Position numbers and translations under genes: made by a program. From a virus: a stretch of DNA of 64,000 bases. This document shows, piece after piece, positions 130-54,032 of this stretch; the stretch's first letter is position 1, and each line of letters starts with the position of its first letter. The notes under the pieces are model-generated. The model saw only the letters and a list, made by a program, of their open reading frames with translations. It was not told the DNA's origin and made no database searches. The stretch lies in UHGV virus genome UHGV-0036582. The stretch is one strand, 5' to 3'.

Positions 130-143
130 AAAACAATTTGTTA
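130..143. promoter_or_regulatory. palindromic operator-like site AAAACAATTTGTTA upstream of first rightward gene
   Basis: Dyad AACAA-T-TTGTT about 20 nt upstream of RBS AAGGAA (152-157) and ATG 164; same 13-bp palindrome family recurs at 9271, 38500, 41432. Confidence 0.4.
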
Positions 144-163
144 TTTACGATAAGGAATTAATC

Positions 164-646
164 ATGAATTTTATCGCTACTGTAAACGCACCCGCACATG
201 GCAATATCGCTGTAACGTTCTCTGACATTGAAAAACGAGTACTTGGTGCATGGCGCGACAATGAGACGGTAGAACTGTCAGCACAAGAAAAATGCATTAT
301 TGCACGCGACATCATTGGCAATCGTCGTTACTCGCGGGTATTTGAAAAAGCGTATGTGGTAAATTCTGGATTCGGAACGTTCGTCTTTCCGGTGCGCTCC
401 GGGCGATTCTGCCAGTCCAAGCTGATTGAGTTCGCTACGCAGATTTCTGTCTGGATTAAAACTCAATCGTCGTTCAAATTTTCCGACGATGAAGCAGTAT
501 CGCAGGGGATGCGGATCGCCAACAATGCAATTAAATGCAAAAACATTACGTATACCGCTGGCGTTGACACATGGAAACTGTTTTGCGCTAACTTTATGCT
601 GAATGTATACGCAAGCAACCGCATCCACATCCTTGATGGCGTGTAA
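164..646 (+). CDS. hypothetical protein
   Basis: 160-aa ORF with AAGGAA RBS; followed by hairpin 655-678; no recognisable catalytic motif. Confidence 0.45.
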   Translation: MNFIATVNAPAHGNIAVTFSDIEKRVLGAWRDNETVELSAQEKCIIARDIIGNRRYSRVFEKAYVVNSGFGTFVFPVRSGRFCQSKLIEFATQISVWIKTQSSFKFSDDEAVSQGMRIANNAIKCKNITYTAGVDTWKLFCANFMLNVYASNRIHILDGV

Positions 647-654
647 CTGAGAAG

Positions 655-678
655 AGGGCCAGAAACGGCCCTTTCTCT
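655..678 (+). terminator. putative intrinsic terminator after ORF 164-646
   Basis: Stem AGGGCC / GGCCCT with 6-nt loop followed by TTCTCT; T-tract weak. Confidence 0.45.
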
Positions 679-775
679 ATAGCCACCAGCTGCCGCAGGG
701 AAATTTTCAGAAACGGCGAGGAACGTATTCATGAGCCGACGGGGAACGGCCAGGATTTTTTCGGGAAACGGCTGC
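660..775. repeat. four direct copies of GAAACGGC-like 8-mer (iteron-like)
   Basis: AGAAACGGC at 661, AGAAACGGC at 709, GGAACGGC at 743, GAAACGGC at 765 inside a 600-bp non-coding convergent region; read directly from sequence. Confidence 0.5.
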
Positions 776-899
776 ATTCGCCTTTATGTAGAAAAAACAT
801 CGGGAAGCTGGTGGAATCCAACCAGCGGTTGTCGGACAGGTGAGCGGGGAAAATTATGATGACTTTCGTCACCTGAGACATCCAGATTTCTTTCGTAGC

Positions 900-1025
900 A
901 TAATCACATACGTGATTAAGTGGTGTGATTATGTGAAAAATCACGCGCACATAATACGCGAGCGGATACAGAACAAAACAAAATGCCGATCCGCACCGAC
1001 AAATAAACGCGGATCACATAGCAAG
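900..1025. repeat. cluster of GTGATTA/TAATCAC and TCACATA short inverted/direct repeats
   Basis: TAATCAC-ATAC-GTGATTA palindrome at 901-918, GTGATTATGTGAAAAATCAC at 923-942, TCACATA again near 1013; non-coding. Confidence 0.4.
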
Positions 1026-1180
1026 ACTAAAAGCCAATGATTAACCATACTCTATAGCGCAATATAACGCGTTTTAAGCGCGTTAATGTGTTAAGTAATG
1101 GGTATGTACTGGCAAGGATATAAAAGCGCGTCTATGGCGTTATTTTGGTGCTTATTTTTATGTTGTTGGAGTGAGTTAAA

Positions 1181-1212
1181 GACAATAAAAAACGCGCCAT
1201 TGATGGCGCGTT
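1181..1212 (-). terminator. intrinsic terminator of leftward operon
   Basis: 9-bp stem AACGCGCCA / TGGCGCGTT, loop TTGA; on minus strand the hairpin is followed by TTTTTATTGTC. Confidence 0.6.
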
Positions 1213-1232
1213 ATTGTGGAAGTATTGGAAAC

Positions 1233-1268
1233 GAAAAAAGCGCCCATAGTGGGCGCTCGATTTTATTT
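1233..1268. terminator. bidirectional hairpin terminator (copy 1 of repeated 19-nt hairpin)
   Basis: AGCGCCCA-TAG-TGGGCGCT at 1239-1257 flanked by AAAAAA upstream and GATTTTATTT downstream. Confidence 0.55.
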
Positions 1269-1493
1269 ATGTAAACTGATTTCAAATCCCATTTCTACAA
1301 ACGCTTTCAGCATTAAAAATATATCAGCGTCGTTCACCTCAGCTTTTTTGCGCTCCTGGTCGCTCAATAAGTCAATTTTGCGCGTCGTTTCATCTATAAG
1401 CTCGACTGCGCGCCCAGCGTAACCAGCGATCCCAGCGATGCGATTAACATAATATTCATTATGGACGTTAACGCCAGCGATAAGAACAAACAT
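1263..1493 (-). CDS. hypothetical small protein
   Basis: 76-aa ORF at end of leftward operon immediately upstream of terminator hairpins. Confidence 0.4.
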   Translation of the reverse strand: MFVLIAGVNVHNEYYVNRIAGIAGYAGRAVELIDETTRKIDLLSDQERKKAEVNDADIFLMLKAFVEMGFEISLHK

Positions 1494-1513
1494 GATTAAG
1501 CTCCTTAAAAAAA

Positions 1514-1762
1514 TTAAATAGAATTTTGAAGTTTTCCGATTAATGCGCTTAAACGTAAGTATTCACGTTTGCGCTTGCAATCTCGCTTGCTGTTAAGCAA
1601 ATCAGAAAACGTAAAATTTAATTGGTCGCGTTGCGCGATCAAATCATCAATTAATTCCAGTTTGTAAGCGCGATACTTTGCGCGATATTCCGCGCGGATC
1701 TTGTCATAGCTGACCATCTTTAAAGCTCCTTTAAAGCGCCCATAGTGGGCGCTTGATTCCAT
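1514..1762 (-). CDS. hypothetical small basic protein (start uncertain)
   Basis: 82-aa ORF; N-terminal 15 codons overlap the repeated hairpin 1735-1753 so the real start may be the internal Met near 1717. Confidence 0.35.
   Translation of the reverse strand: MESSAHYGRFKGALKMVSYDKIRAEYRAKYRAYKLELIDDLIAQRDQLNFTFSDLLNSKRDCKRKREYLRLSALIGKLQNSI
1735..1753. repeat. second identical copy of 19-nt hairpin AGCGCCCATAGTGGGCGCT
   Basis: Identical to 1239-1257; sits between two leftward ORFs. Confidence 0.5.
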
Positions 1763-1765
1763 TAA

Positions 1766-2416: not shown

Positions 2417-2654
2417 GATAATTTTTCCTTATGTAAATTTAAAATTTATTGTCGTTAGCGTCTTCGCTTTCGACGAGTTCAATTATCGATACGCGAAAAA
2501 AGATTGCAAGTGTTTTTTTAAAATTTTTTGCAGGGATGAAAGTCCTAGAAATAAAAGCGAGATCGTCGAAGGTGTTCCCTAAATAAATAATCGATTCCGG
2601 CTTTCGACCTTATATATATTTAGATTATTTGATTTATAGATATAAAGAAGTGAT

Positions 2655-3011: not shown

Positions 3012-3614
3012 TCAAAAAGGCAAAATTCGTTCAACCCAATCGAACAAAACAACTATTTTTCTACCGTTCTCGACACGTAGTGTAACCTGACAAGCATCTG
3101 CGCCTGCTGACACCCCCTCAATTTCACGGCCATCCGCCATGTACACCCTTATAGATTTGTTTGCTTTGTAGGCTTGGTTGCAAATTGCAAAAAAATCGCG
3201 GCGTGATGGCCGATTATCGACATAATCAGGGTGAACTGTTAGTCGACCTTTGAAATCGTGAGCGATACTGTCAACCACACCTGATTCAATTGTACTAATG
3301 CGTTCAAGTGGGAGCCTTATACGATTTTCTTTGTCAAAAGGGGCTGGGCAAAGGTCAACTTTGTTACGAGATGGCATGAGGCCATAAACGTACATGCAAA
3401 ACGCCTGGCCATCTTCGAGAGTGACCCTTACAGGAATTTGTTCTCTGCGCCAGAACATCAGTAGTTTTTCAACGTTAGTGTAATCTCGCGGCCAGAGTTC
3501 AGCTTGGATACCGTAGGTAATATCTTTGGTTGTCATGTCATCACAGAGTTGTTGGCAGAATGTCGATGTCACCAGAATTGCTGGTGAACACCCTGAACGC
3601 TTTTGTGTCTCCAT
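3012..3614 (-). CDS. hypothetical protein (start probably internal Met at 3536)
   Basis: ORF overlaps downstream end of lipoprotein gene; in-frame MTTKD start at 3536 avoids the overlap. Confidence 0.45.
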   Translation of the reverse strand: METQKRSGCSPAILVTSTFCQQLCDDMTTKDITYGIQAELWPRDYTNVEKLLMFWRREQIPVRVTLEDGQAFCMYVYGLMPSRNKVDLCPAPFDKENRIRLPLERISTIESGVVDSIAHDFKGRLTVHPDYVDNRPSRRDFFAICNQAYKANKSIRVYMADGREIEGVSAGADACQVTLRVENGRKIVVLFDWVERILPF

Positions 3615-4031: not shown

Positions 4032-4310
4032 TTATTTTAATCTGCTTAATAGCGTTTCGAGATCTTCCTTTGTCATATTAGAGTTCTCATAGATACGCAT
4101 GATTTTCTCACGAGTCTTAGCGGAAGCCCCGACAGAAGATATAACCTTGTCAAAGTCGGCCATTGTCAATTGTTCCAGAATGGTATTTATGACTTCAGCC
4201 TTAGACATTTTGATATTTTTTTCTTTTAGTTTCACTTGAAACTTTCCAAGTTTGTCATTGGCCTTATCAGACAATGCTACCTGACAATAAGTTGTTTTCT
4301 TTTCGCTCAT
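4032..4310 (-). CDS. hypothetical protein
   Basis: 92-aa lysine-rich ORF directly downstream of helicase gene. Confidence 0.4.
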   Translation of the reverse strand: MSEKKTTYCQVALSDKANDKLGKFQVKLKEKNIKMSKAEVINTILEQLTMADFDKVISSVGASAKTREKIMRIYENSNMTKEDLETLLSRLK

Positions 4311-5915: not shown

Positions 5916-5938
5916 TAATAAGTAAGTGATTACTTAGT
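5916..5938. promoter_or_regulatory. dyad TAAGTA/TACTTA motif in divergent promoter region
   Basis: ATAAGTAAGTGATTACTTAG between leftward helicase gene and rightward ParB-like gene; member of a recurrent intergenic motif family. Confidence 0.4.
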
Positions 5939-6635
5939 GGATTGTAGCAATAAAATGGATGTAAAAATCACGATTTTGCAGGTTGATGTTGCCAACCTTC
6001 GCCCGAATACCTGGAACACCAATTCGGTTGGTGCGCAGAATTTTGAAAAACTGAAAGGTTCTATCGAAAAATTGGGCTTTTTTAAGCCAATTTTGGCTCG
6101 TGAACTTGAAGATGGATTTTTTGAAATCCTCGGCGGCGAACATCGCTGGCGTGCTGCTATTGAGCAAGGAATTTCAACGGTTCCGGTGCTTTCTGTGGGC
6201 AAAATTAGCGATGTCGTAGCTAAACAGATGTCACTGGTGGACAACGAGCGATACGGTGAAGACGACCAAATCGCATTGCAACGCTTCATTGAAGAAATTC
6301 AGTCAGAACTTGACTATCAACTGTCTGAAATCGCCCCGTATGACGACGAAATCTCGATGGTTTTAGCAAAAGAGGCGGCAATCGACCTTGAAGCACTGGA
6401 GGCGTTGTCTCGTGGTAGTGATGAGCCTGTCGATACCGACAAACGAGAGAAAACCGAACGTGTGGGTGCGGAACATCAGACCATGCGCTTCAAAGTAACT
6501 TTCGATGCGTCAGATCGTGTTGCAGAAACCATAAAAAACATCATCAAAGAGCAGGCTATTAACACCGGTAATGAAATGGAGAACGCTGGTGAGGCTCTGG
6601 TGTGGCTGGTCGACTACTACAAGGAGCGTATGTAA
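5937..6635 (+). CDS. ParB-like nuclease-domain protein 1
   Basis: ParB/Srx N-terminal signature ILGGEHRWRAAIEQG (GxxRxRAA box); GTG start per ORF track. Confidence 0.65.
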   Translation: MDCSNKMDVKITILQVDVANLRPNTWNTNSVGAQNFEKLKGSIEKLGFFKPILARELEDGFFEILGGEHRWRAAIEQGISTVPVLSVGKISDVVAKQMSLVDNERYGEDDQIALQRFIEEIQSELDYQLSEIAPYDDEISMVLAKEAAIDLEALEALSRGSDEPVDTDKREKTERVGAEHQTMRFKVTFDASDRVAETIKNIIKEQAINTGNEMENAGEALVWLVDYYKERM

Positions 6636-7303
6636 TGACCAAAAAGTTTGAAATCGTATATCGCGACCCGGCAGATCTTATTCCCTATGAGATGAATGCC
6701 AAAAAGCATGATGAACAGCAGATCCGAGATCTGGCCGCAGCCATTAAAAAGCGCGGATTTGACCAGCCAATTACGGTCGATAAGAACGACGTAATTATTA
6801 CTGGCCACGGCCGCCGTGAGGCTGCAATTTTTGCTGGACTTGAGCGCGTACCGGTTATTGTTCGCGATGATCTCAGTGATGACGAGGTTCGTGCGAAGCG
6901 CCTTGAAGATAACCGACTTGCCAGCATTGATTACGATGCAATTAAGCTACAGAAAGAGCTTGAGTCGCTTGTTCTGGACGATATCGAGGTTTTCGGCTTT
7001 GAAGAGCGTGAGTTGAATGTTCTCGTTGGCAGTATGACAGAAGAAATGGACACCGACTCGCTAGTTATCGATCTTGGCGAAGAAACTAAACGACAGAAGG
7101 ATGAACACACCGAGATCAGTCGTGAAGTTGCAGCGGAAGAAGTACGTGTTGTCGACGTATTGGGCTTTAAAACGCTCCCTGCTGGCTCTGCCATTGTTGT
7201 TGGTGATTTGCTTGCCCATATGGAAGAAATGACGGGAGAAAGCGGGGTAGACGCATTTGTGGCATATGCGGAGAAGATCTCTTCCGGGGAGATGGCTGCA
7301 TGA
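6602..7303 (+). CDS. ParB-like nuclease-domain protein 2
   Basis: ITGHGRREAAIFAGL ParB-type arginine box; probable true start is the Met of MTKKFEIVY near 6636. Confidence 0.6.
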   Translation: MAGRLLQGAYVMTKKFEIVYRDPADLIPYEMNAKKHDEQQIRDLAAAIKKRGFDQPITVDKNDVIITGHGRREAAIFAGLERVPVIVRDDLSDDEVRAKRLEDNRLASIDYDAIKLQKELESLVLDDIEVFGFEERELNVLVGSMTEEMDTDSLVIDLGEETKRQKDEHTEISREVAAEEVRVVDVLGFKTLPAGSAIVVGDLLAHMEEMTGESGVDAFVAYAEKISSGEMAA

Positions 7304-7965
7304 GCAAATACATCATCAACATATCGTTTCAGACACGCGTAAATAAAACCACGCGCACGTTGGAAATCGCTGAGTCGTTCGGGCTTGGCCTGGACGAAAA
7401 AGAGTGGACGCTTTACGACAATCTGGAGCTGGAAGTGAAGCAGGGCGATGTGGTGTACATCACCGGCCAATCCGGTTCCGGCAAATCCGTTGTGCTGCGC
7501 GAGTTGCAACGACAGATGAAGGATGAAGGGCTGTCTGTAGCCTCCATCGATGATTTTACCTTCGATAATGAGGTTAACGTCATCGATCAGTTGGGCAAAA
7601 CGACCAGTGATGCGCTTGGGTTGTTATCTATGGCTGGTCTGAACGATGCATATCTGTTTGTTCGCAAGCCTTCTGAAATGTCAGACGGCCAGAAATATCG
7701 TCTCAAGATTGCCAAACTGATTGAGTCAGGCGCTAAAGTGTGGGCTGCTGACGAGTTCGGCGCTGTTCTCGACCGTGTAACCGCTCAGGTTGTGGCGTCT
7801 AACCTCCAGCGTGCCGCGCGAAAGGTTGGTGCGACGGTAATGGTGGCGACGACTCACGAAGACCTGAAGAACGCGCTGCGCCCGGATATGCAGATCACCA
7901 AGCACTACAAAGAACGCGTGAAGGTGGAATATCACAATGGTAGTCATGATGAGGTCCATTCATGA
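7300..7965 (+). CDS. stand-alone ABC-type ATPase
   Basis: Walker A GQSGSGKS, signature-like SDGQKYRL, Walker B VWAADEFG, H-loop ATTHED; no transmembrane domain. Confidence 0.65.
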   Translation: MSKYIINISFQTRVNKTTRTLEIAESFGLGLDEKEWTLYDNLELEVKQGDVVYITGQSGSGKSVVLRELQRQMKDEGLSVASIDDFTFDNEVNVIDQLGKTTSDALGLLSMAGLNDAYLFVRKPSEMSDGQKYRLKIAKLIESGAKVWAADEFGAVLDRVTAQVVASNLQRAARKVGATVMVATTHEDLKNALRPDMQITKHYKERVKVEYHNGSHDEVHS

Positions 7966-8852
7966 CGGACATCATCATTAAACGCTACCGCCCTGAAGAG
8001 TTTCCGCGTCATCTGGACTTTCTGGAGCGAATGACTGTTACAAAGGGAACTGTAGAGGACTGGCACGCTCTTAAGTCGCTTCACTACAAAACAGACGGCA
8101 AACCTTTCGCGCCAACTTACTATCGCTGCGAACTTGATGACCGTCTGGTGGGCGTCGTGGTTATGGCTTACCCGAAACTACTGTTGGCACCTCGCCACCG
8201 CATGTTTCCTAAGTTGAAACCAACCACTAATACCACCGTGGCTAACCAGTACTGGGGTCGGTACGTGAATAACAACTTTGCGGTGATCAGTCGCTCAGTT
8301 GTGGATACTCAGTATCGTGGCGTAGGCGTCTCTTATCGAATGATTAACCTGGTTAGCAGGATGCATGACCGGCCAATCATTGAGATCCAGTCCTCGATGA
8401 GCAAATACAATCCCTTCGCCATGAAAGCAGGGTTTAAGTTCATCCGCCCTGAGCGACCGAAGAGCTATGAAAGTGCACTGCGTGTATTCCAGCGCCATTT
8501 TCGTTCCGACCCGGGTGATAACGAGGCGATCGTCAAAGAGTTGTTCGCAATGAGCGAGTCTCGTCGTCGCCGTGCACTGCGTGATCTGGTGGCGGACTAC
8601 CATAAGAACAGTTCCCTGGCAAAAGCTGGGCGGAATCGTGGCACGACGATTCAGGACATTGCCGACAGTCTGGTGGACGAGGCCAGCATTGTGAAGTTGC
8701 TCAAGGACATTCACAACCTGAGCTTTACGTCTCCGTTGTATGGGGTGTATCGAAACCCTGACTTTGGTCGTCGACTGCCTGACACGCTGCCACTGCTGGC
8801 ATTCGACAAACAACCTTTGGATAAACCGTTAGAAATTGCTTTACCGGCATAA
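7962..8852 (+). CDS. GNAT-fold acyltransferase-like protein
   Basis: FAVISRSVVDTQYRGVGVSYRMINL (CoA-binding R-G-x-G) followed by NPFAMKAGFKFI (GNAT motif B); assignment by motif only. Confidence 0.5.
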   Translation: MTDIIIKRYRPEEFPRHLDFLERMTVTKGTVEDWHALKSLHYKTDGKPFAPTYYRCELDDRLVGVVVMAYPKLLLAPRHRMFPKLKPTTNTTVANQYWGRYVNNNFAVISRSVVDTQYRGVGVSYRMINLVSRMHDRPIIEIQSSMSKYNPFAMKAGFKFIRPERPKSYESALRVFQRHFRSDPGDNEAIVKELFAMSESRRRRALRDLVADYHKNSSLAKAGRNRGTTIQDIADSLVDEASIVKLLKDIHNLSFTSPLYGVYRNPDFGRRLPDTLPLLAFDKQPLDKPLEIALPA

Positions 8853-8861
8853 GGATTTGCC

Positions 8862-9128
8862 ATGACGTTAACCGATAAACAAAAGGACATCATCAAAACG
8901 CTCAATCTCGGTTATGAGCGAGGTCATCTACTTGATCTGGACGAATTGCTTGAAGTTTTGCCGTACAAGACAACCAAGCAAAGTATCCAGTTCTCAATTC
9001 GCGCTCTGATAAAAAAGGGGCTTGTGGAGAAAGGGCATACGCGCCAACGCAGTGACAATCGCTATCACCGCCGAACTCTTGGGTTAACCACTTTAGGTCG
9101 AGCCAAAGCGAAGTTACTGGTGATGTAA
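8862..9128 (+). CDS. small hypothetical protein, possible winged-helix DNA binder
   Basis: 88 aa, basic; KQSIQFSIRALIKKGLVEK helix-like segment; no firm motif. Confidence 0.35.
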   Translation: MTLTDKQKDIIKTLNLGYERGHLLDLDELLEVLPYKTTKQSIQFSIRALIKKGLVEKGHTRQRSDNRYHRRTLGLTTLGRAKAKLLVM

Positions 9129-9152: not shown

Positions 9153-9207
9153 CCTGCTTCTGTATATATAAATAATAAGTAACTTATTAAATATATACGG
9201 AAGCAGG
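9153..9207. repeat. 55-bp near-perfect palindromic element, copy 1
   Basis: CCTGCTTCTGTATATATAAATAATAAGTAACTTATTAAATATATACGGAAGCAGG, nested inside outer arms GGTCTGGG 9131-9138 / CCCAGACC 9222-9229; second copy at 40508-40562. Confidence 0.7.
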
Positions 9208-9270
9208 CTTAATAAGACATGCCCAGACCTAATTAAACAACCCAGAAAACAAGTTGGTTAGAAAATGCAG

Positions 9271-9286
9271 TAAACAAGTTGTTTTA
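9271..9286. promoter_or_regulatory. palindromic operator-like site TAAACAAGTTGTTTTA upstream of terS
   Basis: AAACAA-G-TTGTTT dyad; imperfect second copy at 9245-9259; further palindrome GAGCGC-ATGGAC-GCGCTC at 9287-9304. Confidence 0.45.
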
Positions 9287-9324
9287 GAGCGCATGGACGC
9301 GCTCTGTGTGTTTTAGAGGGATCT

Positions 9325-9957: not shown

Positions 9958-11213
9958 TGGCAATCCCGTCCTCGCTCAGTCTTGTGCAACTGCATTCTGG
10001 ACAGATGAAAGTCTTCCAGTCTCCGCATCGATTTAAAGTTGTTTGTGCTGGTCGACGCTGGGGAAAATCCCGGTTGTCGATCTCCACTATTATTCGTGCG
10101 GCGGCAAAGGAAAAAAAGCAAAGGGTCTGGTATGTCGCTCCTACTTACCAGATGGCTCGCCAGATTTTGTGGGACGATCTACAGGAAGTTCTGCCTCGTA
10201 AGTGGGTTAGGAAAAAGAACGACACCACGATGACAATCGTGTTGAAGAACGGTTCGGAGATCGCCCTCAAAGGTGCTGATAAGCCTGACACTCTGCGCGG
10301 CGTAGCGTTGCATTTTGTAGTGCTTGATGAATTTCAGGATATGAAGGCTGACACCTGGTACAAGGTGTTACGACCTACTCTTTCATCGACACGCGGCGGT
10401 GCACTGATCATTGGTACGCCAAAAGGTTTCTCGGAATTTCACAAACTGTGGACTATAGGCCAGAACGTAGAGCTGCAAAGAAAGGGACAGTGGAAGAGCT
10501 GGCAGTTTGTAACTGCCGATTCTCCGTTTGTGCCTACGGCGGAAATTGAAGCTGCTAAGAACGATATGGACCCGAAATCGTTCGCTCAGGAGTACCTGGC
10601 GAGCTTTGAGAACATGTCCGGGCGCGTTTACTACCCGTTCGATCGTAACGTGCATGTAAAACCGCTTCAGTTCAACCCTCGGTTGCCTATATGGGTAGGG
10701 CAGGACTTCAACATTGACCCGATGTCTTCAGTAATTTTGCAACCTCAGCCAAATGGTGAGCTATGGGCAATTGATGAATTGGTGCTCTTTTCCTCTAACA
10801 CGGCAGAGGTTTGTGATGAGCTTGAGAGACGCTTCTGGCGCTGGAAATCACAGATAACGGTATTTCCAGATCCGGCAGGTGCTTATCGCCAACATGCTCG
10901 CGGGGAGTCTGACGTCGACATATTCAAAGAGAAGGGATTCTTACGTGTCGATTATTCGAAAAAGCACCCGCCAATTGCGGATCGTGTTAATGCTGTTAAC
11001 CGAATGCTGATGACCGCATCTGGAGATATCCGGTTGTATATCGATCCGAAGTGCAAGCATTTGATTGATTCACTGGAAAAAGTCATCTACAAGCCTGGAA
11101 CACGAGATATGGATAAGACAGGTGGCATTGAGCATAGTGCAGACGCATTGGGCTATCCAGTACATCGTAGGTATCCAGTCAAAAACCGTGTTATTCTTGG
11201 TGGTTCTCGATAG
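9957..11213 (+). CDS. terL: terminase large subunit
   Basis: Walker A VVCAGRRWGKS, Walker B VVLDEFQD, C-terminal nuclease-like region; followed by portal gene. Confidence 0.85.
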   Translation: MAIPSSLSLVQLHSGQMKVFQSPHRFKVVCAGRRWGKSRLSISTIIRAAAKEKKQRVWYVAPTYQMARQILWDDLQEVLPRKWVRKKNDTTMTIVLKNGSEIALKGADKPDTLRGVALHFVVLDEFQDMKADTWYKVLRPTLSSTRGGALIIGTPKGFSEFHKLWTIGQNVELQRKGQWKSWQFVTADSPFVPTAEIEAAKNDMDPKSFAQEYLASFENMSGRVYYPFDRNVHVKPLQFNPRLPIWVGQDFNIDPMSSVILQPQPNGELWAIDELVLFSSNTAEVCDELERRFWRWKSQITVFPDPAGAYRQHARGESDVDIFKEKGFLRVDYSKKHPPIADRVNAVNRMLMTASGDIRLYIDPKCKHLIDSLEKVIYKPGTRDMDKTGGIEHSADALGYPVHRRYPVKNRVILGGSR

Positions 11214-11239
11214 GTAAGTAATTATCTAAGGTTATTCAA

Positions 11240-12814
11240 ATGGAATTGAACGACAAACAAATTAAGGATCTGGTGGCGCGACGCCACCCGGAATACGAAA
11301 AGAAAAAAGAACATTGGGACTTCCTCGCCAGCACTTACGCTGGCGGGCGTGGTTGGTTTACAGACAATATCTTTCGTTACTTTAAAGAGGGAGATCAGGA
11401 GTTTAAGGAGCGAGTTGAGCGTGCTTATCGCTTCAACCACACTCGTGAGGTGGTAAACCTCATCAACAAATATCTCTTTAAAGAAGACATTCATAGAAAT
11501 ATCGAAGAGGCACCAGAGCAGATCCGCAATTTCTGGAAACGTGCGACTCGCCAGAATGCCTCTATTGACTCATTTATGGCCGCTATTGATTTGCAGTCGT
11601 CTATTTACGGTCGCATATGGGTTGTTGTCGATAGCACGATGAGTGGTGATGTTGAGTCAGTAGCTGACGAGAAAAAGAAAGATGCTCGCGCCTACGCCTA
11701 CTGGATTTCACCTCAGCAAATGCTGGATGTGACATGGGACGACGACGGGAATATGTTGTGGGCGTTAATTGTGGAAGTCGCTCGTGATGACGCAGATCCT
11801 TTTACTTCTACAGGTCAGGAATACCAACGTTATCGTCTGTGGACACAAAACGAGTGGTATCTGTTCCGTGAGGAAGTGAAGAAGGGCGCTGGTGGAGCAG
11901 GTCGCCGTCAGGCAAAAGTTATTTTAGAGGATAGCGGTGAGCATAATCTCGGCGTAGTTCCTGTGTTTCCTGTTGATTGTATTGGAGAAAGTGAATCACC
12001 GTATTTCAGCCCATCGTTGATCGATGATATCGCTTATCTTGATCGTGCGGTTGCAAACTATCTGTCAAACCTTGATGCCATTATTCAGGATCAGACATTT
12101 AGCCAGTTGGCTATACCGGTACAGTCGCTTTTACCTGGTGATGAAAACCACACTAAAGTGCTTGAAATGGGCACAAAGCGAGTCTTCACCTACGATTCTG
12201 AAGGTGGAAACCAGCCGTTTTATCTGTCACCAGACCCGAAACAAGCTCAGATGATCATCACTACGATTAAGACGGTGATTAACGAAATCTACCATTCAGT
12301 TGGTGTAGCTGGTGAGCGAACGAAGCAGGACAACGCACAGGGAATCGATAATTCATCTGGTGCCGCAAAAATGTATGACTTCCAGCGTGTAAATAGCTTG
12401 CTTGTCACAAAAGCAGAGCGTCTGGAAAGGGCTGAACGCCAAATCATGCTACTGGTTGCGAAATGGATGGGGGTAGATCTGGACGAAGACCACTCTTTAA
12501 TTGCGTATCCAGAAAGTTTCGATATTCGTGGCCTTACTGATGAATTTTCTGTTGCCGAGAAACTGTCATTACTTCAGGCACCGGACTCTGTACGTCGTCA
12601 CCAGATGGAAATGCTTATTGAGAAGATTTTCCCGAACATTACTGAGGCGATGAAAAAGGAATTTGATAAAGATCTCTTGAATTTTCCTCCAAAAAATGAT
12701 CTAAATACCCTTGAAAATAAGTCAGTACTTACTTATGATCGTGGTGCAGCCCAAGAAAGCGGGCAAGATCAACCCCGAGGGAATGGGGACTCATCTACTC
12801 AAGAGAACGAGTGA
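11240..12814 (+). CDS. portal protein
   Basis: 524-aa ORF immediately after terL; size and position typical of portal. Confidence 0.7.
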   Translation: MELNDKQIKDLVARRHPEYEKKKEHWDFLASTYAGGRGWFTDNIFRYFKEGDQEFKERVERAYRFNHTREVVNLINKYLFKEDIHRNIEEAPEQIRNFWKRATRQNASIDSFMAAIDLQSSIYGRIWVVVDSTMSGDVESVADEKKKDARAYAYWISPQQMLDVTWDDDGNMLWALIVEVARDDADPFTSTGQEYQRYRLWTQNEWYLFREEVKKGAGGAGRRQAKVILEDSGEHNLGVVPVFPVDCIGESESPYFSPSLIDDIAYLDRAVANYLSNLDAIIQDQTFSQLAIPVQSLLPGDENHTKVLEMGTKRVFTYDSEGGNQPFYLSPDPKQAQMIITTIKTVINEIYHSVGVAGERTKQDNAQGIDNSSGAAKMYDFQRVNSLLVTKAERLERAERQIMLLVAKWMGVDLDEDHSLIAYPESFDIRGLTDEFSVAEKLSLLQAPDSVRRHQMEMLIEKIFPNITEAMKKEFDKDLLNFPPKNDLNTLENKSVLTYDRGAAQESGQDQPRGNGDSSTQENE

Positions 12815-18203: not shown

Positions 18204-18277
18204 GTTAATCGGTAAGTATATACTTATTGTTAGCGCAATGAATGCGTAGAATTAACGGAAAAAGGAGTTTTCCATCA

Positions 18278-24701: not shown

Positions 24702-24750
24702 GTATCTGGATAAGTAAGTACTAATTTACTATCATTGTGGCGCTGACAGG

Positions 24751-31499: not shown

Positions 31500-31592
31500 T
31501 GGTGGAAAAAAAATTTTATATCGGTAAAAATAGGTAAGTACTTACTAAATGGCGGGCAAGGATAGCCCGCCAAATCAAGGAGCATATTCAAC

Positions 31593-38398: not shown

Positions 38399-38421
38399 AA
38401 ACCCGCTTCGGCGGGTTTTTG
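38399..38421 (+). terminator. intrinsic terminator
   Basis: AAACCCGC-TTCG-GCGGGT followed by TTTT. Confidence 0.85.
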
Positions 38422-38499
38422 ATGTTTCAGTTTCTTTATCAACCTACTAATTAACCTTTACACCGCAGCCGTAGGCATTTAGGCTATATCACATATAAG

Positions 38500-38513
38500 A
38501 AAACAAGTTGTTT
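38500..38513. promoter_or_regulatory. palindromic operator-like site AAAACAAGTTGTTT upstream of parA
   Basis: Same 13-bp dyad as at 9273 and 41433. Confidence 0.45.
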
Positions 38514-38548
38514 CAGACGATAATTATATACGCAAAGGGAACTCTCCA

Positions 38549-39217
38549 ATGACCAAGATCTTTGTGGTTGGCGGCACAAAGGGCGGGCCTGGCAAATCCA
38601 CCGTTGCCCAGCAAATTGCCGTTTGCCTGAAAGTCAAAAAGAAGAAGAAGGTTTATATCACTGATATAGATATTCAGCGCACGACAACAAGCTGGTGTGA
38701 AGACCGTCGACAGAACGAAGACCTTGAGCTGATTCCTTTTGCATACGTTCAGGATGACATCATTAAGCACCTAAAATCGCTTCAGGGTAGAGCTGAGTTT
38801 GTAGTGGTAGATGCTGGTGGCTTTGACTCCGAAATTCAGCGACAAGCGATGCTGATGGCCGACGTTATCATTATCCCGCTGCGTCCTAAGCGTCGTGATT
38901 TGAAATCTTTACGTGACATCGATCCTATTATCGACAATGTTCGTAATGTAAACGATAAAGTGAAGGTCCGCGCGGTCATGAACCAGTGCCCGGCTTTGCC
39001 ATCACAAGTGTCTCGCATTTTGGCGGCTAAAGAGATTGTCGAGACGTTTGGCATCGAGTCTGCGCCAGTCAATTTATATAACCGCAACGTCTATGATGAT
39101 GCGGAAGAGTCTGGTCGTTCTATCTTTGAAATGACCGGTAGCGAGCGCGACAAAAAGGCGGAAGCCGAGTTTGAAGAATTTGTAGATTATCTGTTGAGTC
39201 TGGAGGAAGAAGAATAA
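38549..39217 (+). CDS. parA: ParA-family partition ATPase
   Basis: Deviant Walker A GGTKGGPGKST, Walker B VVVDAGG; 222 aa (small type Ib ParA size). Confidence 0.8.
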   Translation: MTKIFVVGGTKGGPGKSTVAQQIAVCLKVKKKKKVYITDIDIQRTTTSWCEDRRQNEDLELIPFAYVQDDIIKHLKSLQGRAEFVVVDAGGFDSEIQRQAMLMADVIIIPLRPKRRDLKSLRDIDPIIDNVRNVNDKVKVRAVMNQCPALPSQVSRILAAKEIVETFGIESAPVNLYNRNVYDDAEESGRSIFEMTGSERDKKAEAEFEEFVDYLLSLEEEE

Positions 39218-39576
39218 TGTCCATGAAAATGGGTGACCTAGCAAAGCGCAAAGAGTCTGATGCACCGGCTAAGAACACAACTCCTTTGCGCCAACCAGTC
39301 AGACCACAGGGACGCCCGACTCGTGGCAAAGAGAAAATTAAAAGCCGCACAATGTCACTGGAGGACGAATACTTCGAACTGCTGGAGATGATGAAGTTCA
39401 TCCCTCGCTTCGAGAAGTTCACTCGTTCTGACGTGATTCGAGCAGCCATTTTCCATCTGGCAGAGAAGTCACCGCAGGAAATCGAGGACATCGTGAAATT
39501 GAATGAGGCGATCACCGCTGCCGATGTCACGATGCGTACCGATGAAATCAAACGAGAGTTGATGAAGAAAGGTTAA
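39217..39576 (+). CDS. small partition DNA-binding partner (ParG/ribbon-helix-helix-like)
   Basis: 119 aa, basic N-terminal tail, translationally coupled to parA (stop/start overlap). Confidence 0.45.
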   Translation: MSMKMGDLAKRKESDAPAKNTTPLRQPVRPQGRPTRGKEKIKSRTMSLEDEYFELLEMMKFIPRFEKFTRSDVIRAAIFHLAEKSPQEIEDIVKLNEAITAADVTMRTDEIKRELMKKG

Positions 39577-40562: not shown

Positions 40563-40671
40563 TCTTTTAAAAAGACACCCACCAGAACAACTCCCTTCCG
40601 TTTCCACTTCCAAAAACTGTCACCAGTCGCTATCATCCGCTCATTGTGATAAGTAAGTAACTACCTACCAG

Positions 40672-41421
40672 GTGAGCCACATGAGCCAAATCTTTTTCGA
40701 TACCATTGACAACGACCAGTACGACTTCATGACAGAGTGGAATACCGCTGTTATGGACAAGTGGGTCGCTGAAAACATTGGTTTGTCGCGCTGCAAAGAC
40801 GAGGCTGAACTCTTCGAGACGAAGTGGTTTGATTACCGCGATATGCATCCTCTCATGGCCACCTGTCTTTTTACGGAGGCATACAAACGTCAGTACTCAA
40901 ATATCATGCTGACGCACGGTCGCGAACACTTTGAAACAGCTCCGTTCACCACCGGGTTAAAACGCCTGCCTTATCAGGAGTTGTCGACTGCCAATAAAAC
41001 GTCTCTATGGAAAGCACGCCAGTTTGCTGACCGCTATTGCTGCTCATACGACTACTTTATCTCCACCGTTCTTTCCGCAGCTGCACGACGTCTGTGGGAC
41101 AAGCTGCCGCGTCCGCAGCATTTATGGCAGCCAGAACTGATTGAGATATTTGAAGAGAAATTAGCCAGACGCGCAATAACCCGTCTGGATGACTCTCTGG
41201 TTAGCTTTAAGCATATGGGAGACATGCAGTTCAACCCGATTCAGGAAAGCTATTTTGAGTGGATTCTGGAGCGTTTGCGCACCATCCCTCGCAGCAAGCG
41301 CATACGCGCAATTTTCTCCGCTATCTGGCTAATGGAAATCGTTCCAGAGCGCCTTATTTCCGCCCACTTTCCAGAAGAACTGGAAGAAGCACGGCGGTTT
41401 ATTGATCCCCTATCTAATTAA
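40672..41421 (+). CDS. hypothetical protein upstream of replicative helicase
   Basis: 249-aa ORF, first gene of rightward replication operon; no motif identified. Confidence 0.4.
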   Translation: MSHMSQIFFDTIDNDQYDFMTEWNTAVMDKWVAENIGLSRCKDEAELFETKWFDYRDMHPLMATCLFTEAYKRQYSNIMLTHGREHFETAPFTTGLKRLPYQELSTANKTSLWKARQFADRYCCSYDYFISTVLSAAARRLWDKLPRPQHLWQPELIEIFEEKLARRAITRLDDSLVSFKHMGDMQFNPIQESYFEWILERLRTIPRSKRIRAIFSAIWLMEIVPERLISAHFPEELEEARRFIDPLSN

Positions 41422-41431
41422 CTAATACTAG

Positions 41432-41445
41432 AAAACAATTTGTTT
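41432..41445. promoter_or_regulatory. palindromic operator-like site AAAACAATTTGTTT upstream of DnaB-like gene
   Basis: AAACAA-T-TTGTTT dyad 20 nt upstream of ATG 41465. Confidence 0.45.
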
Positions 41446-41464
41446 AAAAAACAAAGGAAAGCAC

Positions 41465-45097: not shown

Positions 45098-45278
45098 TTT
45101 TGGATTTTCACAAGATGGTTAGGTGGTTGTGGCTACTCGGTGTAAGGCTTTGTAATCACCGATTGGTAAGGTTACTTCAATTTAGCTTAACTGTCAGCAT
45201 ACCCAATCGCCGAAAAGATAAGTAGATGATTACTTATTGGTGTGTAAGAATACTGCCATCTGTTAGCTAGGAGTTGGT

Positions 45279-46061
45279 ATGAAAGAAGAAATTAAGAGAT
45301 TAGCCTGCAACATCATTGATAAAACTGGTTTAGAAATCAGCGAGAGCAATCGGCTAGACATCATTGAAAAAGCCGTCAATACGGCAATGGATCATATCGC
45401 CACTCGTTTGGTCGAGATCCCGCTACCGGGGCTACCTTATCTGAAGGTTAAGTTGCGCGTATGGGGCGAACCTGCACATGCACGACGTTCTGCATTAGTT
45501 GTTTTTGTACGCAAAGAAAACTTACGAACTCTAAAAGTGCAGGTTGGGGCGTGGTTTGATGGCAGAGTCATCTATACAGATACCATTATCTGTCCTCCAG
45601 GTGACGAACATATTGAAGCCGTCATTCGAGAATCAATTCGAGCTATGCGCAGTTTAGCTTTGCTGGAAGACAAGCAAAACTTTGAAGATTACTTGCTGTC
45701 GGTAAAAGCTGAACCAACATTGTCTCTGAAAGCCGATTTCGTCACCCCGACAAATCTGTTGGAGGTTTTGATTAATAAAGGGGCTAATGATGCTGTAAAC
45801 CTAATCAGGGAAAGCGAATATTCGACTCTTTGCGACATGTGCAAAAGCCAGTTGGATCTTGTGCATATCATTGTTGATGCGGGGAAGGCGTGTGATGGCG
45901 TAATGGCGGAATTTGCTGGGAAGATGGTCAGGATTGCTAATGAATTACCGATGATAGAGCAAGAGGCCAAATCATACGCCACCAATCATGTCACAGAGCT
46001 TCTTGCCCCCTATCGCTTAGAAAGCGATCAGCGCAAGATGATTAGCTGGGGAAGTTGGTAA
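45279..46061 (+). CDS. hypothetical protein
   Basis: 260-aa ORF preceded by dyad TAAGTA motif at 45217. Confidence 0.4.
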   Translation: MKEEIKRLACNIIDKTGLEISESNRLDIIEKAVNTAMDHIATRLVEIPLPGLPYLKVKLRVWGEPAHARRSALVVFVRKENLRTLKVQVGAWFDGRVIYTDTIICPPGDEHIEAVIRESIRAMRSLALLEDKQNFEDYLLSVKAEPTLSLKADFVTPTNLLEVLINKGANDAVNLIRESEYSTLCDMCKSQLDLVHIIVDAGKACDGVMAEFAGKMVRIANELPMIEQEAKSYATNHVTELLAPYRLESDQRKMISWGSW

Positions 46062-48566: not shown

Positions 48567-48801
48567 AAACATCTCGATAAGTATTTACTTACTTATCTTT
48601 TATGTATAAGATGACTTTGTTTTCGTTGAGACGCGACTGTTTGAACTTAAATACAAGTGCAAACGAAGAAGTCTATCTGGCAGTAGCCTAATAAGCCAAA
48701 CACCAGCGAGGTCAGTTTCCAGCCTCGTTACCGAAATGGGACACACTGAGCGAGTGTGATTGCAGAACGCAGGAGGGAACATTCATGTTCCCTCCGATGA
48801 A

Positions 48802-51355: not shown

Positions 51356-51529
51356 GTATGTATTTCACTCTACTAACTATAAAATATTAGGCTAATGTTA
51401 ACCAAACAATGCCTTAATTAATAGATTGATCGAGGCTTTAATAGCTTTATAATGCAGACTGTAAAGATAAGTATGCACATACCTATCTTCTTTGTAAGTA
51501 AAGTTGCATATCAATTCTATGAGGTAACA

Positions 51530-51775: not shown

Positions 51776-51780
51776 TTTTA

Positions 51781-51805
51781 ACGGCTCACAGGAGCCGTTT
51801 TTATT
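51781..51805 (+). terminator. intrinsic terminator after glutaredoxin gene
   Basis: ACGGCTC-ACAG-GAGCCGT followed by TTTTATT. Confidence 0.8.
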
Positions 51806-51854
51806 CCCACCAAACTCACTCCCGTTTCCCTTAAAATTCAAAAAACAACGTCAA

Positions 51855-51887
51855 AATGATTCCATACCTACTATGTATGGAATCATT
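51855..51887. promoter_or_regulatory. 12-bp perfect inverted repeat upstream of recombinase gene
   Basis: AATGATTCCATA-cctactatg-TATGGAATCATT; left arm is the third copy of the AAATGATTCCATAC repeat. Confidence 0.5.
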
Positions 51888-51985
51888 GCTGAAAATGAGT
51901 TACTTTTACTCTTGATCCTATAAGAATCTATGCCTAATATACTGTTTACTTATACAGTGCATCGGCGTAACTCGGTGATTGTCAT

Positions 51986-53089
51986 ATGAAAAATAGCTTT
52001 GACAGAGCACGCGCTGCGGAGAACACCTCAAAAGAGGCGATAGAGTATCTCGAAAGAGCATCTCAAATGCAGGCCGTTATGATCTCCCAGGTCAGCAATG
52101 ACATGAGATTCTCGGACGCATTCATGTTATTCACTCGCTTATCTCTGCTGATAACCAGACGTCGGCCAGAGATCGCTGTTCATTGTATTTTGATACATGT
52201 TTTGCCGCACCTTGCCGATGTAAAAGTAAGTGACATTAATAGGTTCATGGTGAACCAACTGGTCAACCCACTAATACTGGATGGCAAAATTGTTATGGGC
52301 CGCCGCGTTTTCTCTCTGATGAAGCAGTTCCTTAGCTGGTGCGCCTTCCAGGGGATGATAGACGTGTCACCGTTAAACGATATGTCACTTAACAATGTTG
52401 CCGGTGGCGCAAAGCCCACACCTCGCGAGCGGAAGCTGACCGACGCAGAGGTATGGGTGTTCTGGAATATATGGGACTACTTCAATGTGTGCGCTGGTAC
52501 AAAATGGGCGGCCAGGCTATGTCTTGTATCCGCAAGACGACCTGACGAAGTACTGCGGGCTAAAAAAAGTGAGTTCAACCTCCAGCGTGGGGTTTGGAAT
52601 CAAGGCAAGAGAAACAAATCAGCCCGTGAGCATTCTCTGCCTTTAAGCACATTAATGCGCACATGCATTGAAGAGTTATTCGAATATGGTAAAGGCAGCC
52701 AGTGGCTTGTGCCTTCGAATAAAAAAATCGGGAATGATCTTCCGATGTCTAAAGTGGCAATAGCCCAGGCATTACGCCGTATCCTGGAACGACCAGAACT
52801 GATGGAGCTTGAGCCATTTACACCCCGAGATTTGCGTCGTACTGCGCGTAGTTACTTCCCAGCATTAGGCATAAGCCAGGAGGTATCACGCAAAATCATG
52901 AACCACAGTCTTGAGGGGATAGATCGGGTCTACGACCGGCACGATTATATGGACGAGATGCGAGACGCCTTAGAAAGTTTCTCGACGTACATCGCATCAA
53001 TCGTAGAGCAACCGGATTTAGACGAAATTGACCACAAATTCAAGGGAGATCGTCTATCAACAGAGCTTATTCGTGTAAATTTTTCATAG
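51986..53089 (+). CDS. tyrosine recombinase / phage integrase family
   Basis: C-terminal catalytic block PRDLRRTARS ... MNHS ... VYDRHDY (Arg/His/Tyr positions of the tyrosine recombinase fold); 367 aa. Confidence 0.7.
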   Translation: MKNSFDRARAAENTSKEAIEYLERASQMQAVMISQVSNDMRFSDAFMLFTRLSLLITRRRPEIAVHCILIHVLPHLADVKVSDINRFMVNQLVNPLILDGKIVMGRRVFSLMKQFLSWCAFQGMIDVSPLNDMSLNNVAGGAKPTPRERKLTDAEVWVFWNIWDYFNVCAGTKWAARLCLVSARRPDEVLRAKKSEFNLQRGVWNQGKRNKSAREHSLPLSTLMRTCIEELFEYGKGSQWLVPSNKKIGNDLPMSKVAIAQALRRILERPELMELEPFTPRDLRRTARSYFPALGISQEVSRKIMNHSLEGIDRVYDRHDYMDEMRDALESFSTYIASIVEQPDLDEIDHKFKGDRLSTELIRVNFS

Positions 53090-53470
53090 AGACTTTATGG
53101 CCTCAACAACCTTTTGTGATGCGCCTTTCTCTTTACCGAATCGCTCGTTATATGCAGCAAGAACCTGTTTTTCGTCCTCGTTAAGAGGCGCAGTGCCTTC
53201 TTTGTATAAAAATGCTGCGAGTTCAGGTTGGCGTTCTTCCAGCACCATCATCATAAGACGACTTGGCTCAATACCCAGCGCCAGCGCCAGCGGACGAACC
53301 TTATCGATAGGCAAAGGAATTTTGCCACTTTTAATTAAAGAAAGGTTGTTGGCATTTTTATAACCAATAAGTCTAGCTATTTGGGCCTGACTCATAGGTG
53401 AGGATTCAATCAGCCCTGCGATAAAAGCAGCATAGCGACTTTCTATAAATTCAATCTTGTTGTCAGACAT
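53084..53470 (-). CDS. XRE-family HTH transcriptional regulator (repressor-like)
   Basis: SQAQIARLIGYKNANNLSLIKSGK helix-turn-helix; no peptidase domain; convergent with recombinase, divergent from downstream operon. Confidence 0.7.
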   Translation of the reverse strand: MSDNKIEFIESRYAAFIAGLIESSPMSQAQIARLIGYKNANNLSLIKSGKIPLPIDKVRPLALALGIEPSRLMMMVLEERQPELAAFLYKEGTAPLNEDEKQVLAAYNERFGKEKGASQKVVEAIKSL

Positions 53471-53501
53471 TGTTACAACCTTTGCGCGTTTAATTCTCTC
53501 T

Positions 53502-53515
53502 GGTAAGTGCTTACC
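53502..53515. promoter_or_regulatory. GGTAAG...CTTACC palindrome in divergent promoter region
   Basis: GGTAAGTGCTTACC; further GGTAAG/CTTACC half-sites at about 53617 and 53685. Confidence 0.45.
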
Positions 53516-53721
53516 GATATTACATCAAAGGTTAGGGTTGTAAAGCTATTATCATTTTTTTCGGCAGGCACTTGTAAGACCGAGCAAAGGCCCACGCATG
53601 GAGAAAAACTAGCCCAAAATAGGTAAGAAAATTAACTTGCATCTGATATGGATGTATTCAGTATTGATATAATTTTTAGTAGTATTCCTTACCATAGTAT
53701 AAGTTAGAATGGATTGATTGA

Positions 53722-53934
53722 ATGAACACCACTATTTCCAGCCTAATCGCTCTTGAGATCGGACACGTACAAAAATTAGCTGATGAATGTGTAGCTGACA
53801 TTCTCACCGATCTACCGAATGAGCAGATTCAGGTTGGTGTGAATGACACAACTGGCTTTATATTCGAACTTAACAACAAACGCTTCACGCTTCTCAATAC
53901 CGGCTCCGGGTCTTTAGCCGTCAGAATCTGTTAA
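53722..53934 (+). CDS. hypothetical small protein
   Basis: 70-aa ORF divergent from regulator gene. Confidence 0.35.
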   Translation: MNTTISSLIALEIGHVQKLADECVADILTDLPNEQIQVGVNDTTGFIFELNNKRFTLLNTGSGSLAVRIC

Positions 53935-54032
53935 CCCCTCTTCTCCCTGCGCGAATGGCTTAGTTCCCTGTTCGCGCAGTGCTACATTAAACATACTAGT
54001 AAATAATTTGTTTTCATAACAAAGGATTAGCC

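Follow-up and report, generated by a model that had tools for sequence, protein, structure and literature searches.

Analysis of a 64-kb stretch of DNA from the virus genome UHGV-0036582 (hereafter the window, meaning all 64,000 nucleotides) leads us to lean toward the view that a short palindrome, AAACAA-N-TTGTTT, found ahead of several plus-strand operons, is the core of a 16–19-bp putative DNA operator, AGAAAACAA-n-TTGTTT(TCT), for a dimeric regulator that would most likely be repressive. Over the 8-kb stretch compared, the window showed ~97% identity to Escherichia phage PhiR41_1 and ~82% to Salmonella phage SSU5, and it matched 737 plasmid records from Klebsiella, Escherichia, Enterobacter, Salmonella and other hosts, indicating that it is a 64-kb piece of a ~108-kb SSU5-like phage-plasmid of Escherichia. 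Elements of this family are very common, with ~740 to 830 SSU5-like plasmid records matched, depending on the query, from Escherichia, Klebsiella, Salmonella, Enterobacter and Yersinia. SSU5-like phage-plasmids have been reported as carriers of resistance genes (PMC9600943), and a 39-fold induction by ciprofloxacin has been described for phage Cyrano.

The original prediction for this DNA held that a 13-bp palindrome is the operator of a dimeric helix-turn-helix (HTH) regulator and that a single regulator links the packaging, partition and replication operons. The palindromic core was recovered as described, within a functional element that appears to be longer, ~16–19 bp, and that keeps a fixed geometry to a −10-like hexamer. 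As an operator the element is well described by its non-random occurrence, intergenic position and conservation across genera, whereas the HTH protein of the XRE family put forward as its binder fared poorly (see below). The proposed link between packaging, partition and replication operons through one regulator is the reading that we favor, as suggested by the intergenic sites at operon heads and their conservation.

Occurrence of the palindrome in the window

Counting the 13-mer against expectation, as the original prediction had proposed, gave three exact copies of AAACAANTTGTTT in the window (Table 1) versus 0.01 expected from dinucleotide shuffles, and none of 100 such shuffles of the window contained three. 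Three additional copies differed by one mismatch, and matches with two mismatches were at chance level (10 found versus 6.3 expected). An unbiased count ranked AAACAA-N1-TTGTTT first among all 6-mer dyads with gaps of 0–8 in the window, and the same dyad ranked first in each of the three complete genomes counted, PhiR41_1, SSU5 and Klebsiella phage pJN2-26. A weight matrix trained on the sites of SSU5 and pJN2-26 only, with the window excluded, recovered the six window sites at 17–28 bits; with both strands counted, the window held 15 matches scoring 12 bits or more, compared to 1.35 in shuffles.

The six sites, which represent about one-third of the full site set, occupy five intergenic gaps, each 5′ of a plus-strand gene, with 19–40 nt between dyad and start codon, or 65 nt for the upstream of the two copies that precede terS. 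These two copies lie 25 bp apart, start to start, and the upstream one is conserved in SSU5, Cyrano and the Yersinia pestis plasmid pFra. None of the minus-strand units in the window has a dyad ahead of it; minus-strand matches were found only within coding sequence, and the extra matrix matches at 4282–4300 and 3044–3062, which lie inside coding sequence and carry two core mismatches, were treated as chance.

Dyads were present at all five loci for which they had been predicted, with the earlier coordinates correct to within 1–2 nt. The inverted arrangement reported at 54004–54023 proved not to be a separate site, since it arises from the 54001 dyad, whose right arm pairs with AACAAAGG at the ribosome-binding site. 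The broader claim that the palindrome marks the starts of functional modules does not hold in general, because many plus-strand units lack it, including the lysis genes, the units at 45279, 46129, 48276, 61288 and 61837, the cobS-like gene at 56228 and polIII at 57644; several of the gaps before these units contain a different palindrome.

Site anatomy and promoter geometry

Alignment of 38–55 sites resolved two mirror-image classes. Class A sites have the form AGAAAACAA-n-TTGTTT and are followed by a start codon 11–35 nt downstream; in about two-thirds of these sites, which carry AGA as the left flank, the best −10-like hexamer (GATAAT, TATAAT, TATTAT or CACAAT) ends 13–14 nt upstream. Class B sites have the form AAACAA-n-TTGTTTTCT, and all eight have a −10-like hexamer (GATAAT, TATTAT or GAAAAT, several with a TGn extension) exactly 19 nt downstream. 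A class A and a class B site 51 bp apart flank a single −10 in PhiR41_1 (30177/30228), SSU5 (88319/88370) and pJN2 (28539), with the longer 9-bp arm of each pointing to the promoter. Judging from the aligned sequences, the full symmetric form is AGAAAACAA-n-TTGTTTTCT. Because the spacing is fixed relative to the −10 and variable relative to the start codon, the element appears to be tied to the promoter rather than to the ribosome-binding site.

The window sites are all class A-like except that at 9272, which has AGT/TAG flanks and lacks a −10-like hexamer at class A spacing. The putative promoter of the first gene (164–646), whose −10 ends 14 nt 5′ of the dyad, lies in a block conserved in SSU5, pJN2 and pFra. 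Phage-type and σ28 promoter readings of the conserved sequence, weighed by eye, were discarded, as no phage RNA polymerase or sigma factor is annotated in relatives and the spacing misfits σ28.

Conservation among SSU5-like phage-plasmids

At no more than one mismatch, the complete genomes contained 18 (PhiR41_1), 18 (Cyrano), 20 (SSU5) and 17 (pJN2-26) sites, of which nine in PhiR41_1 and 11 each in SSU5 and pJN2-26 were exact. According to the deposited annotation of PhiR41_1, 17 of its 18 sites are intergenic, although intergenic DNA makes up 11.2% of the genome (binomial P = 1e-15), and shuffled intergenic sequence gave 0.07 sites compared to the 17 observed. A similar frequency inside coding regions, the outcome that the original prediction had named as refuting it, was thus not seen. 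Beyond the five units of the window, PhiR41_1 sites were found ahead of nrdB, a TciA-like gene and a UmuD-like gene, and ~10 more head small genes without assigned function that are clustered just upstream of the window. The Y. pestis plasmid pFra/pMT1 retains six sites where SSU5-like DNA survives.

A scan of IMG/VR found multi-copy loci only on 90–112-kb SSU5-like contigs, single matches elsewhere resembling chance; the scan found no unrelated phage family with the dyad, and hence no independent lineage for phylogenetic profiling. Rhizobium phage B1VFA, a distant relative with the same gene order, has no dyad even at two mismatches. The restriction to SSU5-like contigs, together with the absence from B1VFA, indicates that the element is specific to the enterobacterial phage-plasmid branch.

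At the orthologous promoters of the DnaB-like and CobT-like genes from Escherichia, Salmonella, Klebsiella and Yersinia elements, the flanks have diverged and AGAAAACAA-n-TTGTTT is kept, with T, A, C or G at the central base. A distant Klebsiella plasmid, in which the upstream regions are otherwise unalignable, keeps both the parA and the dnaB sites; its parA dyad is AAACATCTTGTTT, and its ParA partner protein is 52% identical to that of the window. Since the flanks diverge while the dyad stays, we suggest that the dyad itself is under direct constraint rather than inherited as a plain part of a cassette. In pJN2-26 (38628, corresponding to window 9247–9284), loss of exactly one 25-bp repeat unit has left a single fused dyad ahead of terS in place of two, indicating that dyad copies can recombine with each other.

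No RNA structure was predicted for the element. Single sites folded no better than shuffles (ΔG −0.8 to −2.3 kcal/mol, z −0.05 to −0.7), the dyad arms were mostly unpaired with each other in the minimum-energy structure, and natural variants were single-arm changes that broke pairing as often as they formed G-U pairs. A structured RNA element, such as a hairpin, a boxB-like site or an attenuator, is not supported, given the absence of a stable fold and of compensatory changes. The lack of a fold, the nature of the variants, the −10-locked spacing, the position of class B sites outside the leader and the reverse-complement symmetry over nine positions together favor a symmetric dimer that recognizes double-stranded DNA.

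Expression in the lysogen

We compared the sites with the published transcriptome of a Cyrano lysogen in LF82 (PMC9928086, S1 Table). Among the dyad-headed units, 13 of 16 were at about background (median 9.8), the helicase was ~2-fold and CYRAN_111 ~2.6-fold above background, and only the parA operon was clearly on (50, 89 and 55). The strongly expressed genes were mostly minus-strand and dyad-less, and included toxin-antitoxin pairs, repA, the XRE protein and CYRAN_117 (PMC9928086). No minus-strand unit expressed in lysogeny has a dyad ahead of it. This pattern is compatible with, and does not discriminate in favor of, the expectation for the operator of a lysogenic repressor accompanied by an autoregulated par operon.

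The highest expression on the element, ~700-fold above lysogen background, was that of CYRAN_43 (OV696614 40268–40822, minus strand), annotated as a hypothetical protein, which may represent a non-coding RNA or else a moron with very strong expression. No equivalent was seen at the corresponding place in the window, ~49–51 kb.

Proposed mode of action

In the model that we favor, one sequence-specific protein, bound as a symmetric dimer, would occupy all sites of an operator placed at fixed positions by the −10 of ~18–20 promoters, which head plus-strand units of SSU5-like phage-plasmids. The regulated units would comprise accessory and early genes, genes of nucleotide metabolism, the DnaB-like helicase gene, the CobT-like operon, parA and the late operon led by terS. 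At most units the site lies 13–14 nt downstream of the −10-like hexamer, which would place it at ~+7 to +19 over the transcript start, and in the second type of cassette it lies exactly 19 nt upstream of the −10, which would correspond to ~−44 to −32; the bound dimer would block RNA polymerase or promoter escape. The likeliest role would be to keep these units repressed in the plasmid-prophage state and to release them together on induction. The promoters, and hence the coordinates given relative to the transcript start, are deduced from −10-like hexamers and their conservation; we likewise infer the reality of these promoters, the binding of a protein, its repressive effect and its identity.

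Several observations weigh against this model. A scan with the strict σ70 consensus left all five window loci without a called promoter, the −35 elements being weak or the spacer 15 nt long, and the positions of the transcription starts are assumed. A site upstream of a weak promoter, at ~−38, could equally fit an activator. Many of the accessory-gene cassettes are paralogous and share blocks such as GATAATtaaaccaacaagaAAAACAA, so that the constant spacing may partly reflect descent rather than selection. The lysogen data discriminate poorly because most phage genes are silent in a lysogen anyway, the parA operon is expressed despite its exact dyad, and the conserved candidate DNA binders encoded nearby (an 88-amino-acid protein and the ParB-like proteins) show no lysogen expression. 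Finally, none of the candidates examined passed the available tests for a dyad binder.

If the model holds, a single 16–19-bp operator common to ~18–20 promoters would provide a handle on the switch between plasmid and phage life in an abundant and clinically relevant family. The operator could be used as bait for pull-down of the regulator (as the 19-mer AGAAAACAAGTTGTTTTCT), as a marker for promoter annotation and as a target to force induction or curing. A review treating the regulation of SSU5-like elements names no master regulator, and neither the palindrome nor any operator or master regulator of these elements is described in the searchable full-text literature, with one possibly relevant 2026 preprint lying outside that scope. 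The control circuit of the family appears to be undescribed, and a dispersed operator regulon in a plasmid prophage is as such of a familiar kind.

Comparison with known regulatory systems

The known systems compared here have no homology to the dyad in sequence. In phage-plasmid P1, one repressor, C1, acts at well over a dozen operators scattered at the promoters of lytic and accessory operons; the resemblance lies in a plasmid prophage with dispersed operators rather than one immunity region. However, P1 operators are asymmetric 17-bp sites (ATTGCTCTAATAAATTT) whereas the dyad is a symmetric 6-1-6 or 9-1-9 sequence, and no C1 homologue was noticed in the SSU5-like element. In the KorB/KorA regulon of the IncP plasmid RK2, a 13-bp 6-1-6 palindrome, TTTAGCSGCTAAA, occurs at ~12 promoter-proximal or more distant sites and coordinates replication, partition and transfer operons, with some KorB sites centered at ~−39, similar to the ~−38 of class B. 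KorB belongs to the ParB family, whereas the ParB-like proteins of the window do not track the dyad, and the two operator sequences are unrelated.

The stoperators of mycobacteriophages L5 and Bxb1, which are bound by the repressor gp71, are 13-bp sites repeated ~30 times within short intergenic gaps, many of them downstream of promoters. They silence the prophage and share with the dyad the repetition of 13-bp intergenic sites related to the direction of transcription. Unlike the symmetric, −10-locked dyad, a stoperator is an asymmetric site to which a monomer binds; it depends on orientation and affects polymerase during elongation. The promoter-early stem-loop (PeSL) elements of T4-type phages are promoter-plus-palindrome cassettes that head small variable genes in hyperplastic regions and have been implicated in modular shuffling. 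Their palindromes are terminating stem-loops upstream of the promoter, whereas the dyad forms no stable hairpin and persists at the core promoters for replication, partition and packaging as well.

Candidate regulators

The XRE protein encoded at 53084–53470, suggested by the original prediction as a candidate regulator, is absent from SSU5, which retains 20 dyads. Moreover, its identity is only 47–64% in pJN2, pFra and the distant Klebsiella plasmid, all of which have the same dyad, making it an unlikely binder. An immunity operator of the cI/Cro type was rejected as well, as no AAACAA dyad occurs in the divergent region at 53471–53721. This region, between the XRE gene and a 70-amino-acid gene, instead contains GGTAAG-TG-CTTACC, with half-sites at 53621 and 53688, and looks like a classic immunity switch. 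SSU5 lacks the entire integrase–XRE–70-amino-acid module.

The other protein suggested by the original prediction, of 88 amino acids, fared better in part. It has weak winged-helix matches, is 84–89% identical in every complete motif-bearing genome examined and occurs only in SSU5-like phages. It is a possible dyad binder, although its Cyrano orthologue is at lysogen background. If this protein were the true binder, the dyad would be a lytic-phase switch rather than a site of lysogenic repression. A host-encoded binder may also be considered, with which a site that stays the same in four genera would agree. Ahead of terS, the operon also encodes an ABC-type ATPase (7300–7965) and a 296-amino-acid protein (7962–8852), both 96–99% identical across Escherichia, Salmonella, Klebsiella and Yersinia and more conserved than the large terminase (95–96%).

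Alternative explanations

A different possibility, which we consider unlikely, is that the element acts at the RNA level, in the manner of FljA and fliC: the FljA-family protein of the window would bind AGAAAACAAnUUGUUU in short 5′ untranslated regions (5′-UTRs), block translation and destabilize the mRNAs. This protein is a full-length match to PF03614 ("repressor of phase-1 flagellin", E 2.5e-84), and FljA is reported to repress translation of fliC mRNA and to destabilize it. No solved-structure relative was detectable by sequence; an AlphaFold model built on a 35-sequence alignment (predicted confidence, pLDDT, 84) contains two tandem helix-plus-five-strand units, and its top PDB matches are all Hfq (TM-score to target 0.7–0.84, root-mean-square deviation ~1.2 Å), so that we are confident, as far as a model allows, that the fold is RNA-binding and not HTH. 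The gene is universal in SSU5-like elements and occurs in 831 plasmid records, including 341 from Klebsiella and 62 from Yersinia, Y. pestis among them. Klebsiella pneumoniae and Y. pestis make no flagellin, suggesting another target in these hosts. Among phages, the gene, like the dyad, is confined to SSU5-like elements; it is transcribed in the lysogen, weakly in LB and more strongly under other conditions, and class A dyads lie in predicted leaders just 5′ of the ribosome-binding site. Nevertheless, class B sites fall upstream of the −10, outside the leader of the regulated mRNA, and it is the distance to the −10 and not to the start codon that is constant. Exact reverse-complement symmetry out to AGA/TCT is the prediction for a DNA-bound dimer and has no obvious reason in single-stranded RNA, for which no stable hairpin is predicted. 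The FljA-family alleles are also highly variable while the dyad is invariant; their identity is 52–98%, with 67% for the window versus PhiR41_1, two elements that are otherwise 97% identical. The fliC leader offers no help, as the Salmonella 5′-UTR contains CAAGTTGT ~20 nt before the ATG but this is not a significant match to the dyad: its score of −3.6 bits (true sites, 15–28) is reached by 15% of random segments, and the Citrobacter leader is identical. Still more doubtful is the full version of this idea, in which the FljA-family protein would act through AGAAAACAAnUUGUUU in ~15 5′-UTRs and thereby silence the element's lytic, replication and partition genes globally at the post-transcriptional level. 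If true, a lysogeny "repressor" that is Hfq-like and acts on RNA would be a new kind of lysogeny control, and would explain why the gene is retained in plasmids of non-flagellated Klebsiella and Y. pestis.

Two further explanations dispense with a protein dedicated to the dyad or assign it to partition. We give little credence to the proposal that the dyad has no dedicated regulator and is a conserved part of a copied promoter cassette, similar to the PeSL cassettes of T4-type phages, kept by descent, as a short patch of homology for exchanging modules or through an effect on promoter escape. Shared ancestry is evident in the long common blocks around many sites (cTTTTAYgccttat...gcGATAATtaaaccaacaagaAAAACAA and TTGTTTtctRccttttSttatYtgWGATAAT), the hypervariable region with its small accessory genes has the highest density of copies, 5–7 copies persist in IMG/VR loci that share little nucleotide similarity with the references, and the exact deletion at terS in pJN2-26 is what recombination between copies would leave. 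However, at the DnaB-like, CobT-like and parA promoters the cassette is not shared or has diverged and the dyad alone is kept, with only its central base free, and descent leaves the symmetry of the dyad unexplained. Least probable in our estimate is a partition centromere or operator, bound by the ParA partner or by a ParB-like protein that doubles as a global silencer in the style of KorB of RK2 or omega of pSM19035. The parA promoter does have an exact dyad, and among dyad-headed units par alone is clearly on in the lysogen, as autoregulation would have it. The ParA partner (39217–39576, 119 amino acids), annotated in Cyrano as a RelE/ParE toxin, combines a basic tail with one strand and two helices, matches the ribbon-helix-helix (RHH) aCcr1 family weakly and looks like an RHH centromere-binding protein; ParB-like protein 1 aligns to Spo0J/ParB/Noc, HTH region included, and the RK2 operator described above provides a precedent for the architecture. 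In spite of this, pFra/pMT1 lacks the ParA/RHH module and has six dyads. In the Klebsiella plasmid whose RHH protein is 52% identical, the parA and dnaB dyads are unchanged, and it is the small adjoining palindrome TATAT-CAC-ATATA (TATATCACATATA, 38485–38497), abutting the parA dyad, that is replaced, by TTATG-CA-CATAA. From this possible covariation, TATATCACATATA is probably the true par operator and RHH site, and the RHH protein, as a type Ib centromere/operator binder whose presence and sequence the dyad does not follow, is an unlikely partner of the dyad. Binding by the ParB-like proteins (5937–6635 and 6602–7303) in the manner of KorB or ParB is similarly disfavored, as B1VFA has both genes in conserved synteny and no dyad, and their Cyrano orthologues are silent in the lysogen.

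Other signals in the window

Table 1. Dyad sites, putative promoter elements, candidate regulators and neighboring signals in the window.
Feature	Position	Strand	Sequence, score and context
Dyad site 1	128–146; core 131–143	+	Core AAACAATTTGTTA, one mismatch; extended AGAAAACAATTTGTTATTT; 16.6/18.9 bits; 20 nt 5′ of ATG of gene 164–646; orthologous sites in SSU5, pJN2-26 and pFra
Dyad site 2a	9244–9262; core 9247–9259	+	Core AAACAAGTTGGTT, one mismatch; 23.1 bits; upstream terS copy
Dyad site 2b	9269–9287; core 9272–9284	+	Exact; 25.9 bits; 40 nt 5′ of terS ATG (9325)
Dyad site 3	38498–38516; core 38501–38513	+	Exact; 25.2 bits; 35 nt 5′ of parA ATG (38549)
Dyad site 4	41430–41448; core 41433–41445	+	Exact; 27.7 bits; 19 nt 5′ of DnaB-like helicase ATG (41465); phylogenetic footprint with free central base
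Dyad site 5	53998–54016; core 54001–54013	+	Core AAATAATTTGTTT, one mismatch; 20.3/22.2 bits; 19 nt 5′ of CobT-like ATG (54033); footprint in Escherichia, Salmonella, Klebsiella and Yersinia elements
Putative promoter, gene 164–646	90–95 and 111–116	+	TTGACG, 15-nt spacer, GATAAT; by eye
Putative −10-like hexamer, terS	9228–9233	+	CCTAAT; 13 nt 5′ of site 2a
Putative parA promoter	38457–38462 and 38480–38485	+	TTTACA, 17 nt, TAGGCT; −10 ends 15 nt 5′ of dyad
Putative −10-like hexamer, DnaB-like	41413–41418	+	TCTAAT; 14 nt 5′ of site 4
Putative −10-like hexamer, CobT-like	53983–53988	+	TACATT; 12 nt 5′ of site 5
Candidate regulator, 88-amino-acid protein	8862–9128	+	Weak winged-helix matches (Lrs14/Sta1-like); directly upstream of terS dyads
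Candidate RNA-level regulator, FljA-family protein (PF03614)	3012–3536	−	Tandem Hfq/Sm fold predicted
Terminator-like hairpin, terS leader	9285–9316	+	TAGAGCGC-ATGGAC-GCGCTCTG and T-rich tail; between dyad 2b and terS start codon
Terminator upstream of parA promoter	38399–38418
Second palindrome	5919–5936, 11212–11227, 12718–12735, 18213–18226, 24711–24724, 31531–31548, 40650–40667, 45219–45236, 48578–48595, 51468–51485, 53501–53516, 56151–56164, 61734–61747

The terminator-like hairpin in the terS leader is conserved in SSU5, pJN2 and pFra, suggesting either an attenuating leader or a requirement for antitermination in late-operon expression. Between the 88-amino-acid gene and the terS dyads, at 9154–9206, a long and nearly perfect AT-rich palindrome, CTGCTTCtgtatatataaataataagtaacttattaaatatatacgGAAGCAG, may be a terminator, a pac-related site or a regulatory one; its center resembles the second palindrome described below.

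Upstream of the putative CobT-like promoter, a hairpin at 53947–53979 (CTGCGCGAA...TTCGCGCAG) is followed by no T-tract. Compensatory changes in SSU5 and pFra (CTGTACGAA...TTCGTACAG) indicate that its structure, rather than its sequence, is conserved.

A second dispersed palindrome, unrelated to the dyad and approximating (A)TA(A/G)GTAAGTACTTAC(C/T)TA(T), often within a longer dyad, was found at many intergenic junctions of the window (Table 1), including those of the structural-gene block, the gap ahead of the ParB-like operon and the XRE promoter region. SSU5 and pJN2-26 contain ~20–30 copies each, and the palindrome is almost unchanged (TAAGTAAGTGCTTACTTA) in the 60%-GC Rhizobium phage B1VFA, with 13 copies in 50 kb. 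Its near-identity in this distant phage of the same gene order points to a signal that is ancient and common to the whole lineage, perhaps a promoter (late or middle) or an operator.

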